Source: Chiloscyllium plagiosum
Taxonomy: Eukaryota
Direction of reading: 5' to 3'
DNA: 64,000 nt
Assembly (NCBI RefSeq): GCF_004010195.1
Contig: NC_057746.1
Location: forward strand, 27,188,392 to 27,252,391
The notes beneath the pieces are model-generated. The model was not told the origin of the DNA, ran no database searches, and saw only the letters and a list, made by a program, of their open reading frames with translations. This document shows positions 1 through 50,473 of this stretch, one piece after another. A program made the translations under genes and the position numbers. The first letter of the stretch is position 1. Each line of letters starts with the position of its first letter.

Positions 1-120
1 CACTTAAGAACAGATTCTTGCTGTTATCAGACTTATGAACGGACTTCTCATATATTAGAGTTGATGTTTCTCTGCACCTTCTCTGCAGCTGTACCACTAT
101 ATTCTGCACTCTGATCTATT

Positions 121-265
121 AGGAGAAAGTGAGGACTACAGATGCTGGAGATCAGAGCTTAAAAATGTGTTGCTGGAAAAGCGCAGCAGGTCAGGCAGCA
201 TCAAAGGAGAAGGAGAATCGAGAAGGAAACCTGAAGAAGGGCTTATGCCCGAAATGTCGATTCTG
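121..265. mobile_element. Penelope-terminus fragment
   Basis: aggagaaagtgaggact.cagatgctgg start (also at 44896 and, inverted, at 60310); ends in cctgaagaagggcttatgcccgaaatgtcga. Confidence 0.65.
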
Positions 266-540
266 ATCTATTACCCTGATGTACTTACGGAAGTATGATT
301 TGTCTGAATAGCACAGAAAACAACAGTTTTCACTGTATCTCAGTACGTGACAATAATAAATCAAATCAAAACAATTGCATGCTGTTTGCTGGTTACAGTA
401 TATCCACATCACAAGTTACCTCCACAAAGAATGATGATAAATTGATTAAACTTGGTTTAACAAAATCATATTGACTTTTCCTGATCACCTTGAATTTATT
501 GAAGTGTCCCATTCTTAGTTCCTTAATAATAGTGTCTAAA

Positions 541-872
541 GGGCAGCACTGGGCACAGTGATTAGCACTGCTGCTTCACAGTGCCAGGGACCCAGGTTCA
601 ATTCCAGCTTTGGGTCTGTAGGGAGACTGTCTATTTGTGTGGAGTTTGCATGTTGTCTCCATGTCTGCGCGGGTTTCCAAAGATGTGCAGGTTGGGGGAT
701 TGAACATGCTTAATTGTCTGTAGTGTCCAGGAATGCAGGCTAGGTGGACGAGCCATGGTAAATGTGGGGTTACAGGGCAAGACGAGGGGACTGGGTTTGG
801 GTAGGACACTGGAAGGAGGATCAGTACAGAATTGAGGAGCCAAATGGCCTCTAGCTGCACTGTAGGGATTCT
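541..872 (+). mobile_element. HE1-type SINE, older copy
   Basis: tRNA-like head, V-domain and CR1-like tail. Confidence 0.8.
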
Positions 873-1040
873 ATTACTGCAGTCCTTATTACTCCTCTAT
901 ATTGAGTGGTTTTCTGTGCAATGATGCCATGGTCACTTAGCTCATCCAGTCTGCAGCCTTCATTTTCACCTAGATAAACTGAAAGAACCTTGATTACCAT
1001 AGCTCTCCAGCTCAGTCTGAGAGAGCTCTGTGCACCGTAC

Positions 1041-1193
1041 CTGACTAAAGCCACCTTTCAGTATTGATTTCCTCGCTCTGTGCACCTCCTGATTCTCATC
1101 TTGACCCAGTACTGCAAGGTCTGGCTCCGTCGTCACACCAGGGATCTGGCCTGCCTGTTCCATGTGCAAGGTCCCCAGCTCCATAGACAACCT
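1041..1193 (-). CDS. EHMT2: EHMT2 candidate coding exon 5 with second VHRARKS motif; gene continues beyond the window
   Basis: Acceptor ctgtttttacgcag, donor CAG|GTACGG, 153 nt, phase 0-0, open frame RLSMELG...EVHRARKSILKGGFSQ. Confidence 0.75.
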
Positions 1194-1314
1194 CTGCGTA
1201 AAAACAGCAGGATTATTTTAGTTTTGAGGTGATTGAGAGTGTGCGAATCACAATACTGTGATAGTGAAGATATTTCAACCAAATGTCCGCAGAGTTTGAA
1301 ACTCAAATCTTTTT

Positions 1315-1620
1315 ACAGTCATGGAGTCAGACAGCACGGGAACCGACCTTTCGGTTGAACCACTCCATGCCACCCATAATCCCAAACTAAACTAGCCCTA
1401 CGTACCTGCACTTAGTCTACATTTCTCCAAACATTTCTTATTCATGTACTTATCCAAATGCCTTTTAAATGTTGTAGCTATACCCACATCCACCACTTTC
1501 TCTGGAAGTTCATTCCACACATGACCCACCCTCTCTTCTAAAAAAAATGTGCCGCTCATGTCTTTTTTAAAATCTTTCTCCTCTCACCTTTAAAACACAC
1601 TCCATATTCTTGAAACCACC
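1315..1620 (-). mobile_element. CR1 LINE 3' end fragment
   Basis: Same 3' UTR pattern as the copies at 5500 and 59630. Confidence 0.7.
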
Positions 1621-2887
1621 CCCTCTCCCCCCCACAAATGTCAGTCTACATCTTCCTGAACTTATCCCTCCCCTCCTCATGTAACTCAAGTGTTTTCACT
1701 GAAGTCTTCTCCTTGTGGAGGACCTTTTACCACCTCTTTAAGCTAATGAAGCATTTTCCAAAGTACTGTCAACATCCTATTGTTGGACGCACAGCGGCCA
1801 AAGTGCCCACAGCCAGTCTCCACAAAAAAACAATGCAATAATGACCATCTAATCAGTTTCTGAGATATCGACTAAGGATAACTCTCTCGGCTTTTCTATC
1901 AAACTGGTTCTGCCGGATTTTTCGTATATAACATACACTGGCACAGCAAGATAGAGCCTCGATAGAATGGCTCGTCTGACAGAAACCACCTCCTTCAGTA
2001 CTGTACCAGAAGTGTCACACAAGATCCTGTGCTCCAAATGTAGCACTTTTGCCTCTGAGTCGCAAGGTCCCAGGTTTAACTTCCCATTCCTGGAGGTGAC
2101 CATTACTGAAACCCATTACTGAAACGGTTTGTGGAGGGACCAGTGACCTCCCAGCTCCCAATTCTTCCCTTGTTGTAGCCCAGCCGAGATAAGAGTCGCA
2201 GAGGTCTACAGCACATAAAGAGGCCATTTGGCCCACTGAGCTAACTATTCTAATCCCATCTGTCAGCATTCAGTCTGCCGCATTGAGATGTGCACTTGCC
2301 ATTGCAAGTGCATATCTCAATAATTCTTAAATGTTAAGAGGATTCCTGCCTCTACTATCCTTACAGGCAGTGATTTCCAAATTCCCACCACCCTCTGGGT
2401 GAAAAAGGTTTTCTCAAATCCTCTCTAAACCTCATGCCACTCACTTTACCTTAAATCAGCCTCTCACCCCTGCACTCCATCTTTCCTGGCTCCCCACCCC
2501 TCCCACTATCACTTTAATGCTGACCCCCTCAACACTTCACACCAGCTCTGATGAAGTCATCTAGACTCAAACTTTAGTTTGTTCTCTCTCCATGGATGCT
2601 GTCTGCAACACTGATTTCCAGCATTCTTTTGTTTTCAGTTCAGATTCCAACATCTGCAGTAAATTGCTCTTATATCTATGTCCCCTGGTCATTGATCCCT
2701 CCAGCAAGGGGGAAAAAGTTCCTTCTTTTACGCATCATTTTACACATCTCCATCATGTCCCCCGCTCAGTCTCCTCCAGACACAGCATTCAAGGCCATTA
2801 TGTTTGCATACTCTCAGCCACTACGTGGCAACGGACTGAGCTCCGTGCCACTGCACAGGGAGTCAAGCCTCCCTGATCAGTACCTAC

Positions 2888-3147
2888 CTGACTGGCACTG
2901 GATCTGGATATCGACTTTCTTGCTTTGTGGACCTTGGGTTTCTCATCCGGAGTGGAGGTTGGTCTCTGCACCTCGACAGGAACTGGCGCCACCTCGTTCC
3001 CCGCCCGCCCCGTTGGCACGCTGAGCAGCTTCATTGCAAGGCTCTGAATGGAGTTCGGCGACTTGTTGATTCCGGTTAGTGTCATCTTCGCTCTGTTTGC
3101 ACCCAAAGCCTTGGTGGGGGAGGTGGGGAATGTCTTAGCAGCGTGGC
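2888..3147 (-). CDS. EHMT2: EHMT2 coding exon 4 with automethylation/histone-mimic motif
   Basis: Acceptor ttccttcctcag, donor CAG|GTAGGT. Encodes GHAAKTFPTSP..RAKMTLTG..KSPNSIQSLAMKLLS..PKVHKARKS, matching G9a GHATKSFPSSP..RAKMSMTG..KSPPSVQSLAMRLLS..PKVHRARKT as recalled. Confidence 0.92.
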
Positions 3148-9400: not shown

Positions 9401-10090
9401 ACACCCAGAAAATAGAGTGGTCTTTTTACTCCAAACAACAGAGTCCCAGGCTAACTTAGTACTTAGGGTATTTATTTTTAAAATTTAACCAAGGCACAGA
9501 TCTCAGTAAAACATATAATAAAAAAGAACCCATTCTACTCACTACTGTGGACTTGCAGCAAAGTTTACATGTTTAAAAAAAAATGCACTTTTCTGTTCCT
9601 GTGCTGTCAGCTCTCCTACACAGGATCCTGCAAGGTCAGCTATGAATTTTGTTGTTTGTTATTTTTTCTGGATGCACTCCAATGTCCACAGATACATGAA
9701 CTCAAACAGCAAAAGCCGTAACTGTGCAGATTCTCTGCTGTGTCAGTTAGCAGTGTCGGTTTCTTTCTCTCTCTCTCCCTCACTGACCATGTGGTCGCTG
9801 CCTTTTGTCTGTCTTCGTCCTTTCAAAAGCGTCGTTGTTTTAATCTATTTTCTCCCAAAGTTCCAAAACAATGCAACAGCACATAAAACAGTAATTGCTG
9901 CTCCTGGAATTTGAGGAAATCCCTCCAATACCTAAAATACTTCAAAAATGGATCAGCTCTGACAGCTACAGTTTCTTTTTCTCATCCGCCAACTTGGATT
10001 ACCCAGAATTCTCAGGTAGGACCAAAGGGTCTGTTTTCGTGCTCTATGACTCACCATCAGGGAGGGAGGGCAAATGTGTACGGGGTTTAC

Positions 10091-10420
10091 CTGCAAGACC
10101 TTTGGCAGAAGGAGCTCCAGTTTGAGAAACTGGGCGACTAGCAGCCACAGCATCAGGTGAAGGGCACTCTGAGGCCAGGAAGGGCTCGCTCGATTTGCAC
10201 TGCTGCTCACTGCTTCCCGACTCTTCCCCTAACAGGCCCGGCACCACCACAGTCTCAGGATCGGGGGTCTTCACCACAATCTCTTGGCTGGTCCCAGGGC
10301 CTGGCAGCTCCCTGCTGTTGTTCTGCAAAGTGATGTTACCCATTGTGTTTCCGCTGCCTGCCACAGGATTTGGCACCTGCCCCGTTTTCTCAGTGGACAA
10401 CCCTGGCTCGTCGTCGATCC
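10091..10420 (-). CDS. EHMT2: EHMT2 coding exon 3 (low-complexity N-terminal region)
   Basis: Acceptor ttttattttgcag, donor CAG|GTAAAC, 330 nt open frame (IDDEPGLSTEK...SAKGLA), phase 1 to 1. Confidence 0.75.
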
Positions 10421-12168: not shown

Positions 12169-12891
12169 AGGTGGGGATATTTGTGGAACTTCCTCATCCT
12201 GAAAGTCATTAATTGTCTGCTACAATTCTTAACGAGATATGGCAGGACTGGAGATTTCAGATCTGATTCCATTTGTTGTAGGTTCACTTAGCTGCCTTTC
12301 ACATGTTGCTTCTGCTTTTTAGCAGTCCCTTGCTCCTGCCTTTGAATCTCCCCACTTCCTTTCTCACTAGACCTCATCCCTTCCACAGACCTCCCACCTT
12401 CATTCTCTCCTCAGACTGACCAGAGCACCACTCGCTACTCTCACCACATTCCTTAGACCTCACTCCTACCTCAGATCCCTGCCCCCAAAGCCTGTCATCC
12501 CAACCTTATCTGAAAAGGCACAGCTACTGACTGAAGAAACCACATCAACAGCATGACCCAAACCTAGGTCTCTCTCCTGCTACTTGACATTAGATAGGTT
12601 GCCGCCGCATGCAGAGTCACCCAGCTTCCATCCAATCTCACTGACTTTTCATTTTCCCATATTAAATCACATCCGCTATCTATCTCTCAGCCCTTTGACC
12701 TGACTAGGAAGAGAACAAAAGGTCCCAAGACATCACTCAGAAAGGAGTTCTCTCCTTACCATTGTACTGGCCAGCGACCCTAACCACCATGAGGACCCCC
12801 AAAAGCAAATTATTGTGTCCTCCCTCTCTCTGCCGTATTGCTGTGTCCTTTGCTGACAGAACAACAGTTCGTTTTGAATCCATAATCTTAC

Positions 12892-12976
12892 CTTGGACGA
12901 GTTCACAGCTGGGGCTTGTGTCCAGCACCAGGAGCTCTGGTTCTACTGCAGCTTCAACCGGGCTGTTAGCCACAAC
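12892..12976 (-). CDS. EHMT2: EHMT2 coding exon 2 (VVANSPVEAAVEPELLVLDTSPSCELVQ-G)
   Basis: Acceptor tttccttttcacag, donor G|GTAAGA, 85 nt, phase 0 to 1, which fits exons 1 and 3. The peptide is divergent, so the assignment rests on splice phase. Confidence 0.7.
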
Positions 12977-18599: not shown

Positions 18600-19090
18600 T
18601 TACGGGGTGACGCGATCGATCGCCCGCAAACCTAAGCCCTGGATCGCGCATAACGCATTCCACTCAATCCAACGCCAGGGGGAGCAGATGCGTTGCCCAG
18701 GTTCCCTGGTCCCAGCTGTCAATCAGCCGTCTCCTTCCCCCTCTCCGCCTCACAAAGCGCCTCAGACCCATGGCCGCCGTGGACTCGGAGCCGACGGAGC
18801 AGCAAAGAGCGGGGGAGGGGAAAAGGAAAAAGCCTCGGTTTTAAATGTAAGCCGGGATGGGATTTGAGCGGGGTTGGGCGAAGAGCAGCCTAAGCGTCCC
18901 CGGCGTTAAGTGGGGGGTCGCGGCGATTTTTTAAATCGGAAAGAGGAATTCCCTTCCCTCAGCGGCTGTCTCACCTCAGCATCCAGGGAAGCCATGGCTC
19001 CCGGCCCGTGACGTCATTGCGCAGCGGAGGGGGCGGGGCCTAACCTGCACGGGGGCGGGGCCTGACCAGATGAAGGGGCAGGACCAGCCT
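18600..19090. promoter_or_regulatory. CpG-rich promoter of EHMT2
   Basis: High GC and CpG content; perfect CRE TGACGTCA at 19009-19016; two GC boxes GGGGGCGGGGC at 19029-19039 and 19051-19061; YY1-like ATGGCCGCC at 18770-18778. Confidence 0.8.
18975..18995 (-). CDS. EHMT2: EHMT2 (G9a) coding exon 1, MASLDAE
   Basis: Minus strand reads GGAGCC-ATG-GCT-TCC-CTG-GAT-GCT-GAG|GTGAGA: strong Kozak context, canonical phase-0 donor, inside a CpG-rich promoter. Resembles the EHMT1 first exon MAAADAE as recalled. Confidence 0.8.
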
Positions 19091-26069: not shown

Positions 26070-26110
26070 CCATTGGCGCATTACACGTGACACCGACCGG
26101 TTGGGCGGAA
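26070..26110. promoter_or_regulatory. Motif cluster upstream of ZBTB12-like A
   Basis: ATTGG (CCAAT box) at 26072-26076, E-box CACGTG at 26084-26089 and GC box GGGCGG at 26103-26108, all within 40 bp. Confidence 0.4.
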
Positions 26111-26231
26111 TTGTTTTTGTTTCCATGTCCCCCTTGGTGGTTATTTCTCAGGCGCAGTTTCACCAGGGCCTTTGACATTTTTTTTGTGTCTGTCTCCCTC
26201 TCTCTCTTCATTTCGAACAGTTCGAGAGGCC

Positions 26232-27308
26232 ATGGCGCCGAGAGAGGTCCTTCAGTTCCAGTTCCTCCACCACGAGTCGACGACCCTGAACAGGATGAAC
26301 CAACTCCGCGTGGAGGAACGTTTCTGCGATGTGACCGTGGTGACAGGCCAGCTGCGGTTCGCGGGGCACCGCGTGGTGCTGGCCGCGTGCTCGCCGTTCC
26401 TGCGCGACCAGTTCCTGCTGCAGCCGTCGCCAGAGGTGCGCGTGGCGCTGAGCGAGGGCACCGAGATGCTCTCCCGCCTGCTGCTCTCATGCTACACGGG
26501 CTCGCTCGACGTGCCCTGCGGGGAGGTGCTCAGCTACCTGACGGTGGCCAGCTACCTGCAGATGGACCACGTGGTGGAGGAGTGCAGGCGCGCACTCTCC
26601 ACGTGCATCGACCCCCGCATCAAGCTCGAGGACGACAGGGTGACCGTTGGGCCTCACGCTCGGGCCCAGGAGGCGTCCGAGACAACCGACGACGATGACG
26701 TTTACGTGGTCATCGAGGTGGACGGCCCGGCGGCGGCGGCGGAACCTTCTCGAAGCCAACCCAGCGACCCCCGGCAGGAGGCCCACCCCGAGCTCTCCGA
26801 GGCTGCCGAGGAGGAGGACGGCTCTGTGCTGATCGGTGGCAGGGGCTCCTCCTCCGATGAGGACAGCTCAGCGGCCGAGGAGAGCGGGCCCCCCCTGGGC
26901 CGCCCCGCCTGCCCTCGGCCCATTCACTGCAGCGTGTGTGCGCAGGCCTTCCAGCACCCGGAGCATCTGGTGGCCCACATGAAGGCCCACAAGCTCTTCA
27001 TGTGCCCCAGATGCGGCAAGGTGTTCCACCAGCGGGTCAACCTGGCCCGCCACATCCACGTGCACACCGGCATCAAGCCCTACCTCTGCACCGTCTGCGG
27101 CCGCACCTTCACCCAGAACCGATCGCTCAAGGACCACATGAACCTGCACAGCGGAGCCAGGCCTCACTGTTGCCACTACTGCCACATGAGCTTCGCCCAC
27201 AAGCCCGCCCTCCGCCGGCATCTCAAAGAGCAGCACAGCAAAACTACAGCTGACAACTGTAGGTTGGCCCTACTCGGCACGGCCAGCACCTACGCGGAGC
27301 CAGTGTAG
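26232..27308 (+). CDS. ZBTB12: ZBTB12-like protein A (BTB/POZ + 4 C2H2 zinc fingers), 358 aa
   Basis: Kozak ATG (GAGGCCATGG) 11 nt after a pyrimidine tract and CAG acceptor ending at 26220. BTB motifs [33 protein letters not shown]. Fingers FMCPRCGK...FAHKPALRRHLKEQHSKTT, typical of ZBTB12. Confidence 0.9.
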   Translation: MAPREVLQFQFLHHESTTLNRMNQLRVEERFCDVTVVTGQLRFAGHRVVLAACSPFLRDQFLLQPSPEVRVALSEGTEMLSRLLLSCYTGSLDVPCGEVLSYLTVASYLQMDHVVEECRRALSTCIDPRIKLEDDRVTVGPHARAQEASETTDDDDVYVVIEVDGPAAAAEPSRSQPSDPRQEAHPELSEAAEEEDGSVLIGGRGSSSDEDSSAAEESGPPLGRPACPRPIHCSVCAQAFQHPEHLVAHMKAHKLFMCPRCGKVFHQRVNLARHIHVHTGIKPYLCTVCGRTFTQNRSLKDHMNLHSGARPHCCHYCHMSFAHKPALRRHLKEQHSKTTADNCRLALLGTASTYAEPV

Positions 27309-33385: not shown

Positions 33386-33644
33386 GCAGGGTGGCAACGC
33401 AAGAGTGAACAGAGAGTAGGGAGGATTCCCTTTGAAAGACGCAGCGGTTGTTCGTCAGGGGGAAGATGCAAGTTCCTTGATCCCTGGGCAGCACAGAGCC
33501 CTCCCTCTCCGCGTGTGGAGTGTGAGTGGGGAGAACACGCTGAGGCTCCTCGGCCAACACCAGCCCCCACACCCCCGAAAGGCCATCACCAAAGCGGACT
33601 TCTCTGTCGAGTTGTCGCTGCTGCAGGCGGTGAAGCTGGAGGCG

Positions 33645-35114
33645 ATGGCCGACGGCGGGGGGAAGCTGCTGCGCTTCAGGTTCCCGGAGCACGACTCGAC
33701 GGCGCTGCGGAACATGGACGAGCTGCGGCGGGGCGAGTGGTTCTGCGACGTGACGGTGCTGGCGGGCGGCCTGCGGTTCCCGGGCCACCGGGTGGTGCTG
33801 GCCGCCTGCTCGCCGTTCCTGCGCGACCGCTTCCGCATGGAGCCGGCCCGCGAGGTCACCGTGCTGCCCGCCACCGCCGCCCCGCAGGCCGTGCTCCGCC
33901 TGCTGCTCGCCTGCTACACCGGCCGCCTCGAGTTCCCCTTCGCCGACATCCTCGACTACCTGACCGCCGCCAGCTGCCTGCAGATGGAGGACGTGGTCGA
34001 GCAGTGCCGCCGCTCGCTCTCGCCCTGCGTGGTGGCCGCCTCGCTGCTGCGGCTCGCCCAGGACGGGGGCGGCGGCGAGGCCGAGGACGGAGCGGGGCCT
34101 GCGGCCGCTGGAGGAGGCCTCCGCCCGGGCCGCTCCTCCGGAAACCCGCGCGTCGGAGCGGCTGCGAACCGGGCGGCGGAGAGACTCGAGGCCGAGGCCT
34201 CCCCCCTTCCTCCTCCCACCCAACCCCCTGGGACGACGGGGGCGGTGCGAGGCGTCGAACCGGTCAAACTCGAGGCCCAGGCTTCTCCACCACCACCTCC
34301 TCTCCTAGGCCCCGGTGACCGGGAGGCTCTCGCCGCCCCTCACCCGCCTCCTCCGCCCGCCGCCGATTACCTGGAGACGGAGGGCCGCGTCCACCGGAGG
34401 CCGGGGCTGGAGGTGGGCCAGGGGGAGGGAGGGGAGGAGGGGGGCGATGGCGGAGATGGGGAGGAGGACCGGGCCAAGGCCGAAGGGATGGTGGCCGAGG
34501 CCTACCCGCCGGGCACCGGGGCGGAGGAAGGAGGGGAGGAAGAGCCCGAGGACGACTACGAGAGCTCGGCCAGCGAGGAGTGCCGGGCCTCGGGGGGTTT
34601 CTACGGCGGAGGGGCGGCAGGGGGTTTCTACCAGCGGCCCGGGCTGGGAGAGGAACCGCAGGCCTCGGGCCTGGAGGAGGGCCCCGGGCCCGGTCCTGCT
34701 CCCGGAGCCGGGGGCTTGGCCGAGCCGCCCCTCCTGTGCTCGGAGTGCGGGGCCCCGTTCGAGCAGCGCAGCGGCCTGGCGGCCCACCTGCTGCTCCACA
34801 AGCTGTACATGTGCCCGCTCTGCGGCAAGCTCTTCAAGAAGAACGCGCGGCTGGCCCAGCACCTCAACGTGCACACCGGCTTCAAGCCGTACGGCTGCGC
34901 CGTCTGCGGCCGGGCCTTCACCCAGAACCGCTCGCTCAAGGACCACATGAACGTCCACAGCGGAGACTCGCCGCACAGCTGCGGCTACTGCGACATGCGC
35001 TTCACCCACTACAACACCCTGCGGGTCCACCTCCGGGACCAGCACGGCAAGACCACCAGCGGCAAGAACTCCGGGGAGCCCAGGCTGGCCGAGATCAACG
35101 TGGTAGTGCCCTAG
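33645..35114 (+). CDS. ZBTB12: ZBTB12-like protein B (BTB + 4 C2H2), 489 aa
   Basis: First ATG (GCGATGG) after a ctgctgcag acceptor ending at 33626. Intact BTB, acidic Gly/Pro linker, 4 fingers, C-terminus HGKTT..AEINVVVP. Confidence 0.88.
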   Translation: MADGGGKLLRFRFPEHDSTALRNMDELRRGEWFCDVTVLAGGLRFPGHRVVLAACSPFLRDRFRMEPAREVTVLPATAAPQAVLRLLLACYTGRLEFPFADILDYLTAASCLQMEDVVEQCRRSLSPCVVAASLLRLAQDGGGGEAEDGAGPAAAGGGLRPGRSSGNPRVGAAANRAAERLEAEASPLPPPTQPPGTTGAVRGVEPVKLEAQASPPPPPLLGPGDREALAAPHPPPPPAADYLETEGRVHRRPGLEVGQGEGGEEGGDGGDGEEDRAKAEGMVAEAYPPGTGAEEGGEEEPEDDYESSASEECRASGGFYGGGAAGGFYQRPGLGEEPQASGLEEGPGPGPAPGAGGLAEPPLLCSECGAPFEQRSGLAAHLLLHKLYMCPLCGKLFKKNARLAQHLNVHTGFKPYGCAVCGRAFTQNRSLKDHMNVHSGDSPHSCGYCDMRFTHYNTLRVHLRDQHGKTTSGKNSGEPRLAEINVVVP

Positions 35115-48919: not shown

Positions 48920-49110
48920 AAGATGTCTGATGCATCGTTCCCTGTTATTTCTCCTTCTTGTCCACCTCCTCAGATAAGCAATTGGAGAATGCCATCCTAA
49001 GCACCTTTCCCTGTTATTTCTTCTTCTCCCGCACCCACCCCAGATAAGCAATTAGAGGATATTGTCTAATGCATCTATTCCTGTTATTTCTCTTTATCCC
49101 TCCCCAGATT
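48920..49110 (+). repeat. Three about 70-bp units, each a 3' splice-site module
   Basis: cctgttatttc at 48941, 49010 and 49080, each followed by pyrimidines and CAGAT (48971, 49041, 49105). Confidence 0.85.
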
Positions 49111-49123
49111 CCTCTGCCCAGCT

Positions 49124-50473
49124 ATGGCGTCTGACGACGTAGTGAGGTTTCAGTTCCCGAGCCACGAGGTGACCATCCTGAAGAAGATGAACCAACTGCG
49201 GTTGGAGGAGCGTTTCTGTGATGTGACCATCGTGGCGGACCAGCTGCGGTTCCCGGGCCACAGGGTGGTATTGGCCGCATGCTCGCCGTTCCTGCGTGAT
49301 CAGTTCCACATGAACCCATCACAGGAGGTGCAGGTCTTCCCCATGACCGGCGCCCAGATTGTGCTGCGCCTGCTGCTCTCATGCTATACCGGCTGCCTAG
49401 AGTTCCCCTTCAATGACATCCTTGACTACCTGACAGCCGCGAGCTGCCTGCAGATGGAGCATGTGGTGGAGAAGTGCCGCCAATCGCTGTCACCACGCAT
49501 CGGGCCCCGCGTGCCCCCATCCGAGGGAGTCGATGAGGGGCCTGGCACGCCGCAGATCGCCAGCTCGTCAGAGCGAGTGCCGGACACCGAGAGGCCAGCT
49601 CCTTGGGAAGCTGGAGCAGCACCACCAGCACCAGAGGAGAAAATACCGAAACGGGCGCCAGCTGACGATGTGGTGAAGCTGGAGTCAGAACAACACTCAG
49701 ATTTCAGCGGGACCGAGGATATCTGCATCCACAAGGTGGAGTCGCTAGCCGACTGCATGGAGGGTTGCCCGGAGCCGGTGGGCAAAGTGCGGGGTCCTGA
49801 GGCCGCCAACGGCTTGGAGCCCGATCCGGGCATCCATTCGACAGCGGGTGGCTACCCAGATGCCGGTGGCCCTCCCTATGACATGTCAGAGGTGATGATC
49901 TCAGATGAGTTCCAGGAGGAGGACTATGAGAGCTCAGCTAGTGAGGAGTGCCGCAGCAGCGGCTTCACTGGTAGTTACTACCGGCCCGGAGAGGAGCACC
50001 CGCCGCTGGCACCTCAACAGCAACAGCCGCCGCCCCCTTCTGCCAGTGCCCTGGCGGGACTGGGCGCTAAGGAAGGGGAGTCGGCGCGCAGCCCTGGCCT
50101 GTGCTCGGAATGCGGCGCACCGTTCGAACACCGCGAGCACCTGGCTGCGCACATGGTAGTCCATAAGCTCTACATGTGCCTGCTGTGTGGCAAAGTGTTC
50201 AAGAAAAATGCACGGCTGGCGCAGCACATCAATGTGCACACCGGCTTCAAGCCATACTGCTGCGCTATCTGCGGTCGCACCTTCACGCAGAAGCGCTCGC
50301 TCAAGGACCACATGAACGTGCACAACGGTGACTCGCCGCATTGCTGCAGTTACTGCGACATGCGCTTCACCCACTACAGCACCCTGCGGGTCCACCTCCG
50401 GGACCAGCACGGCAAGACCACTACACGCAACATGGAGAACAAGCCCGCTGAAATCAGCCTGGTGGTGCCTTAG
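49124..50473 (+). CDS. ZBTB12: ZBTB12-like protein C (BTB + 4 C2H2), 449 aa
   Basis: [30 protein letters not shown]; linker motifs VKLE and DICIHKVES as in ZBTB12; 4 fingers; C-terminus AEISLVVP; acceptor just upstream. Confidence 0.92.

Follow-up and report, generated by a model that had tools for sequence, protein, structure and literature searches.

The bamboo shark (Chiloscyllium plagiosum) gene for G9a (EHMT2) encodes five tandem H[RK]ARKS modules, the first at the end of exon 4 and the others on four added symmetric exons of 153, 156, 135, and 156 nt. The switch that these modules repeat is homologous to the K185 switch of G9a, and the tandem five-exon array itself appears to be a new, previously undescribed part of the protein. 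We propose, with a probability of roughly two in three, that the arm bearing the five motifs acts as a multivalent dock for chromodomain readers, gated by methylation and switched by phosphorylation. The initial annotation of this DNA, a stretch of 64,000 nucleotides (the window; G000:C37:27188392-27252391), had described two ARKS modules. Both are real, but the edge of the window had cut the array short, and with the 200 kb downstream of the window added to the analysis the total is five.

EHMT2 occupies the minus strand of the window. Coding exon 1 (18972..18995) carries the start codon and matches residues 1-8 of the bamboo-shark EHMT2-like record P0026 exactly; coding exons 2 (12890..12973) and 3 (10089..10418), whose borders are placed to within 2 nt, lie upstream of the first motif-bearing exon as well, so that this exon had been numbered correctly as exon 4. 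Exon 4 (260 nt; 2888..3147) ends in module 1 at a phase-0 donor, CAG/GTAGGT. Module 1, the copied unit, comprises 52 codons (2888..3043) directly preceded by an in-frame CAG (Gln) codon (3044..3046), and the target lysine codon of its motif, HKARKS (2912..2929), is found at 2917-2915, corresponding to K223 of P0026. Module 2 is a 153-nt exon (1041..1193) of phase 0-0 with AG/GT borders, a CAG/GTACGG donor, and a single match in the genome; its motif, HRARKS (1065..1082), has its lysine codon at 1070-1068 (K274). The two ARKS sequences originally noticed (2923-2912 and 1076-1065) lie within these two motifs, and both exons do end in AGT CAG/GT, the motif serine being separated from the donor by eight residues.

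The 2254-nt intron after module 2, the first part of which fills window positions 1..1040, continues out of the window to modules 3 to 5, which are likewise phase 0-0 exons of the minus strand with AG/GT borders and lie 1.2 to 2.4 kb past window position 1. These are module 3 (156 nt; L002:8631-8786; G000:C37:27187022-27187177), with its lysine at K326; module 4 (135 nt; L002:7874-8008; G000:C37:27186265-27186399), with K371; and module 5 (156 nt; L002:7561-7716; G000:C37:27185952-27186107), with K423 and a retained, ancestral-like M-x-K-P flank. The five lysines are thus spaced 51, 52, 45, and 52 residues apart in P0026. A search for H[RK]ARK[ST] in the six-frame translation of 464 kb from the EHMT2 and EHMT1 regions gave six matches, namely, the five of the array and one in EHMT1, and we therefore do not regard the array as a chance occurrence.

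Judged by its sequence, the gene carrying the array is EHMT2, with the Cys-rich region, ankyrin repeats, pre-SET, and SET domain in that order, which bears out the identification made at the outset. P0026 maps exactly onto 32 exon segments and has EHMT1-2_CRR (the Cys-rich region), Ank, and SET matches above the cut-off and a partial pre-SET; the pre-SET is whole in a protein from a congener, P0005, which is 94% identical (259/275) to a human EHMT2 catalytic fragment. When exon 4 was used as the query, 12 of the 15 proteins returned were named EHMT2 or EHMT2-like. Among the 13 elasmobranch matches, 10 were so named, the other three had uninformative names, and none was named EHMT1; a separate EHMT1-like gene is present on contig C30 of the bamboo shark.

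The array is a constant feature of sharks and rays. All five motifs were found in 79 of 80 protein records from 19 species (12 sharks and 7 rays or skates), the remaining record having four; these records include nonindependent isoforms and are those listed from a cluster with three further members. Every one of the 399 motifs ends in Ser, and module 2 is present throughout. The linkers between motifs vary in length and sequence. Bony vertebrates were represented by 51 records (from coelacanth, lungfish, amphibians, reptiles, birds, mammals, bichir, sturgeons, paddlefish, and bowfin), with truncation not checked for each: 42 have one motif, always with Thr (ARKT), 9 short or partial records have none, and none has more than one. 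Seven further N-terminal fragments from a search of representative sequences have one ARKT each. With at most one motif in the bony-vertebrate records examined, the possibility that module 2 is a general vertebrate exon was ruled out.

The array motifs occupy a homologous position, since they sit at the same exon end and the repeated unit aligns to the single module of bony vertebrates. A Gln codon followed by a GT donor eight residues past the motif is found in bamboo-shark EHMT1, which has one ARKT and no N-run within 11 kb, and also in three mammal-like intron read-through records (P0133, P0134, and P0136). Because both bony vertebrates and shark EHMT1 have one ARKT, we infer that a single Thr site is the ancestral state. 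The homology and profile searches (1.84 billion representatives) returned no EHMT2 N-terminus from a chimaera, teleost, or jawless fish among their matches, and the 11 matches of the profile search were all EHMT2-like, with no unrelated protein carrying such an array. An assembly artefact or a recent duplication was also ruled out: the modules share only 35 to 47 of their last 66 nt, the adjoining introns are not clearly alike, and the five copies recur in 19 species.

Several individual records deserve mention. Module 4 is the most variable module (38 to 49 residues, with the motif intact); carpet sharks do not have four N-terminal residues that several other sharks have in it, and its C-terminal flank is shortened in Mobula. 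Two Rhinoraja records with neighbouring locus numbers, P0013 and P0116, both named “uncharacterized,” have near-identical EHMT2 N-termini with five motifs, and a Heptranchias fragment, P0003, named “nucleolar and coiled-body phosphoprotein 1-like,” is actually an EHMT2 N-terminus with five motifs.

Sequence comparison identifies exon 4 as the ancestral exon of the array. No gap is needed to align its last 52 codons with modules 3 and 5, eight columns are invariant in all five modules, the DNA end TCAG/GTA is common to exon 4 and the copies, and the unit begins right after the CAG at 3046-3044. The gap-free unit and the common end favor the earlier suggestion that module 2 is a partial duplicate of exon 4. 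A tandem duplication that began within exon 4 and ended in the following intron would have taken the 3' part of the exon together with its donor, turning the in-frame CAG into an acceptor and so creating a frame-neutral exon of 156 nt, and further whole-exon copying would then have produced the four added exons before sharks and rays separated; the Thr-to-Ser change would have preceded the copying of the modules. We infer that the CAG at 3046-3044 was the source of the acceptors of the new exons. The pyrimidine-poor acceptors of modules 3 and 5 agree with such an exonic origin. Resemblance of the flanks to the old exon body is weak: the flank of module 3 matches it at 8 of 15 positions (P = 0.017, uncorrected), and those of modules 2, 4, and 5 do so at 4, 2, and 6 of 15, which is chance level. 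If correct, this scenario would provide a clear example of a new exon derived from a piece of an older one.

To date the array, we relied on a tree of 62 module rows from 11 elasmobranch and 7 bony species (52 columns, motif included), from which six closely related elasmobranch species and three bony rows had been left out. The modules group by position, not by species: modules 2, 4, and 5 each form one well-supported group of sharks and rays, and module 1 shares an open fork with the single module of bony species. Module 3 was not recovered as one group, but its monophyly was not rejected (p-AU 0.087). A separate expansion in rays was rejected (p-AU 0.0001), and the tree places the array before the shark-ray split, which occurred more than 250 million years ago.

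What such an arm might do is suggested by the mammalian enzyme. G9a automethylates its own ARKT site, and the mark recruits HP1 without altering catalysis; ARKS and ARKT peptides are methylated by G9a with similar efficiency (PMC2175347). In the structure of human Cbx3 with G9aK185me3, the hexamer HRAR(Kme3)T is buried, the His bonds to Asp68, the Ala fills a methyl-sized pocket of HP1-gamma, and both residues make specific contacts; a single G9a mimic binds HP1-gamma weakly (Kd, 9 to 28 µM), and ARKS peptides bind alike (PMC3325965). The mark is read by HP1 and CDYL, binding is blocked when Aurora B phosphorylates the next residue (PMC8541646, PMC6180122, and PMC9768651), and the mimic is required for glucocorticoid-receptor coactivation (PMC6180122). 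All five shark motifs retain the His, Ala, Arg, and Lys contact residues described for that structure (PMC3325965), together with a phosphorylatable residue at +1, and it is this retention in every copy that makes a multivalent dock their likely function. Homology with human K185/T186 suggests that each array lysine would be di- or trimethylated by the SET domain of G9a or GLP and that each methyl-lysine would bind one chromodomain (HP1, CDYL, or MPP8). Sites that are weak singly would gain strength through avidity or allow several readers to be held together, and the readers would be released when Aurora B phosphorylated the neighbouring serines. The initial annotation had envisaged two docks, bivalent for one HP1 dimer. 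Docking remains the likeliest reading, but with five modules instead of two the number was understated, and that model is too small.

By their sequence, the motifs would largely suit G9a as substrates. Their -1 Arg, +1 Ser, and +2 residues (I, I, I, and F in modules 1 to 4) fit the G9a consensus quoted in one review (PMC4023394); the +2 Met of module 5 is absent from that quoted consensus but is the residue of the human site, and the -2 Ala and -3 Arg of the array likewise fall outside it but match the human site (PMC4023394). A looser G9a substrate pattern has also been given (PMC10611923). The flanks upstream of the motifs are acidic in modules 2 to 4 (net charge, -3, -3, and -4) and neutral or basic in modules 1 and 5, and as a consequence the five sites may be unequal as substrates or ligands. 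On the reader side, the bamboo-shark genome has 15 chromodomain matches, CDYL- and CDYL2-like proteins among them; no HP1 (CBX1/3/5) was identified among the 8 of these 15 loci that were examined. A bolder extension, which we put forward only tentatively, is that the self-methylated arm might be a chromatin-independent seed that gathers HP1, CDYL, or MPP8, possibly in condensates, at G9a targets, to be dissolved in a switch-like manner by multisite Aurora B phosphorylation. Were this so, H3K9 silencing or steroid-receptor coactivation would be wired differently in elasmobranchs and bony vertebrates.

We also considered that the array might be directed at the enzyme itself, the motifs serving as tethered substrates or, in their mono- or dimethylated state, as ligands of the ankyrin repeats of G9a or of its partner GLP, and so damping or timing H3K9 methylation without any outside reader. 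The change from Thr to Ser makes all five motifs match the ARKS core of H3, the ankyrin repeats of G9a/GLP bind methylated H3K9 (PMC8541646), and automethylation lifts autoinhibition in Clr4 (PMC9768651). However, automethylation left the catalytic activity of the mammalian enzyme unchanged (PMC2175347 and PMC8541646), and the invariant His(-4) is a chromodomain contact (PMC3325965) and not a residue of H3. We consider a self-directed role unlikely.

Alternative splicing of the symmetric exons could instead set the number of docks, as had been suggested for module 2, so that tissue-specific isoforms would display anything from one to five. We think this quite improbable. Four of 24 listed runs, guessed to be RNA, were used to read splicing from assembled contigs, which drop rare forms. 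In runs X1 and X4, one contig each joins exon 4, modules 2 to 5, and the next exon without a single differing letter, and two X2 contigs give the same array joints except that from module 4 to module 5; the predicted junction from 2888 to 1193, joining exon 4 to module 2, is present in the contigs of all three runs. A 213-nt X2 contig (L022:1402-1614) spans the 157-nt intron between modules 4 and 5, and no listed X2 contig joins those two modules; it can be read as pre-mRNA or intron retention. The raw single-cell run X16 was too shallow for inclusion rates, with a single read on each of two array joints. The contigs lack the introns at exact GT-AG borders, and a processed retrocopy as their origin was ruled out by the single genome match of the module 2 exon.

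It is true that the four added exons are all frame preserving, that a whale-shark isoform, P0017, is missing precisely module 3 (it is the only record of the 80 with four motifs), and that the acceptors of modules 3 and 5 are poor in pyrimidines (11/20, below all 26 others scored, which range from 12 to 18). However, the other 79 records have all five modules even though the same species have many isoforms that differ elsewhere, none of the 80 skips module 2, and no skip was seen among the 15 joints listed for the four runs, out of a set with 181 more. The symmetry of the exons, moreover, follows from the way in which they arose. The module 2 donor had been called weaker, but when donor strength was taken simply as the number of matches to a nine-position consensus, it scored 7/9, right at the median for the other 27 donors; its acceptor (13/20 pyrimidines) lies inside the range of the others, and on these measures neither end of the 153-nt exon is weak. 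Taken together, these data lend little support to tuning of the dock number by splicing. Five modules are the usual state, and splicing alters their number at most occasionally. As for module 2, it is spliced into transcripts, conserved among elasmobranchs, and absent from the bony-vertebrate EHMT2 records examined.

The copies could instead have been retained because they serve as kinase sites or as basic localisation signals of the form R-K-S-hydrophobic, with methylation of the added copies being incidental, but we regard this as very unlikely. The array serines follow Arg-Lys and mostly precede a hydrophobic residue, and this pattern fits an Aurora-type consensus. The human site is an Aurora B target (PMC6180122 and PMC8541646). 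Neither a kinase site nor a localisation signal, however, needs His(-4) or Ala(-2), and both are invariant in 85 of 85 module slots from 17 species. Both are reader contacts (PMC3325965).

Codon comparisons indicate that the motif is under purifying selection: its protein sequence is maintained while the sequence around it changes. Across 60 pairwise codon comparisons, the five motifs differ at 34 codons synonymously and at 4 nonsynonymously. The linkers of modules 2 to 5 have only 8/28 to 22/38 residues in common when the bamboo shark is compared with four rays, and 8/31 to 15/38 when modules are compared with one another. The N-terminal arm is likely disordered, as predicted from its composition (63% disorder-promoting residues; FoldIndex 0.001 versus 0.224 for the ankyrin region) and from an AlphaFold2 model of the Heptranchias arm, built on a shallow alignment of 17 sequences, with a mean pLDDT of 40.5 and one moderately confident helix (residues 178-189). 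Neutral expansion in such a region, with extra exons tolerated and without any function of their own, would suit the predicted disorder, the variable linkers, and the fact that bony vertebrates manage with one site, but it is largely refuted by the conservation of the motifs, which are intact in 19 of 19 species and number five in sharks and rays alike, and we give it hardly any credence.

Compared with the mammalian switch at G9a K185/T186 and GLP K205/T206, the array has the same gene, exon end, and H-x-A-R-K core (PMC3325965). The differences are five copies versus one, Ser versus Thr, the four added exons, and the acidic flanks of modules 2 to 4. Readers (HP1 and CDYL) and their blocking by Aurora B are reported for the mammalian switch (PMC8541646). 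For self-methylated mimics in more than one copy, the closest precedent is SETDB1, likewise an H3K9 methyltransferase, in which the H3K9-like motifs at K1170 and K1178 govern chromodomain partners (bioRxiv 10.1101/2025.10.22.683908). Those are two imperfect motifs, 8 residues apart in the catalytic domain (bioRxiv 10.1101/2025.10.22.683908); in shark G9a the motifs number five, are near-perfect, lie in the N-terminal arm at intervals of about 50 residues, and are each linked to an exon. ATF7IP (K16), WIZ, CDYL1, and DNMT3A also carry short mimics methylated by G9a/GLP, several of which dock MPP8 or HP1 (PMC9768651), but these are single or scattered among other proteins, whereas the shark array consists of tandem exons on the enzyme itself. 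Known skipping of G9a exon 10 (PMC8541646) is likewise a conserved variation in a cassette exon, but that exon is not the one bearing the mimic, and the array exons are almost always included. Our literature search on shark or elasmobranch G9a/EHMT2 and on tandem or multivalent histone mimics, with most subscription journals and supplements outside its scope, found no report of the array, although its exons are already present in public automatic annotations.

The array reveals no new chemistry or pathway. Its interest lies in valency, the effect of which is hard to study because histone mimics usually come singly. Elasmobranch G9a is a natural five-site version, old and fixed, on a catalytic domain 94% identical to that of humans, and its arm offers a direct test of avidity and multisite phosphorylation in reader recruitment. 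On the present analysis, it is likely that one elasmobranch G9a molecule docks several methyl-lysine readers at once.

The arm and its genomic surroundings offered some further observations. No Pfam family covers the array, and a comparison of module 2 with solved structures gave no match at E values up to 10. The segment that opens the unit (SLAMKLL-like; window 3011-3052, exon 4) is conserved from sharks to mammals, coincides with the only moderately confident helix of the arm, and can still be recognised, though decayed, where modules 3 to 5 begin; it is possibly a second short binding motif. Two N-runs lie about 51 to 55 kb beyond window position 1 on G000:C37, at the place where the pre-SET of P0026 is incomplete, which is most likely the result of an assembly gap and not of a broken gene. 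Finally, three single-ORF genes for BTB and C2H2 zinc-finger proteins stand in tandem on the plus strand of the window (26091-27305, 33420-35111, and 49070-50470), head to head with EHMT2. They resemble ZBTB12, the single neighbour of human EHMT2, and the three ZBTB12-like copies may be a local expansion.
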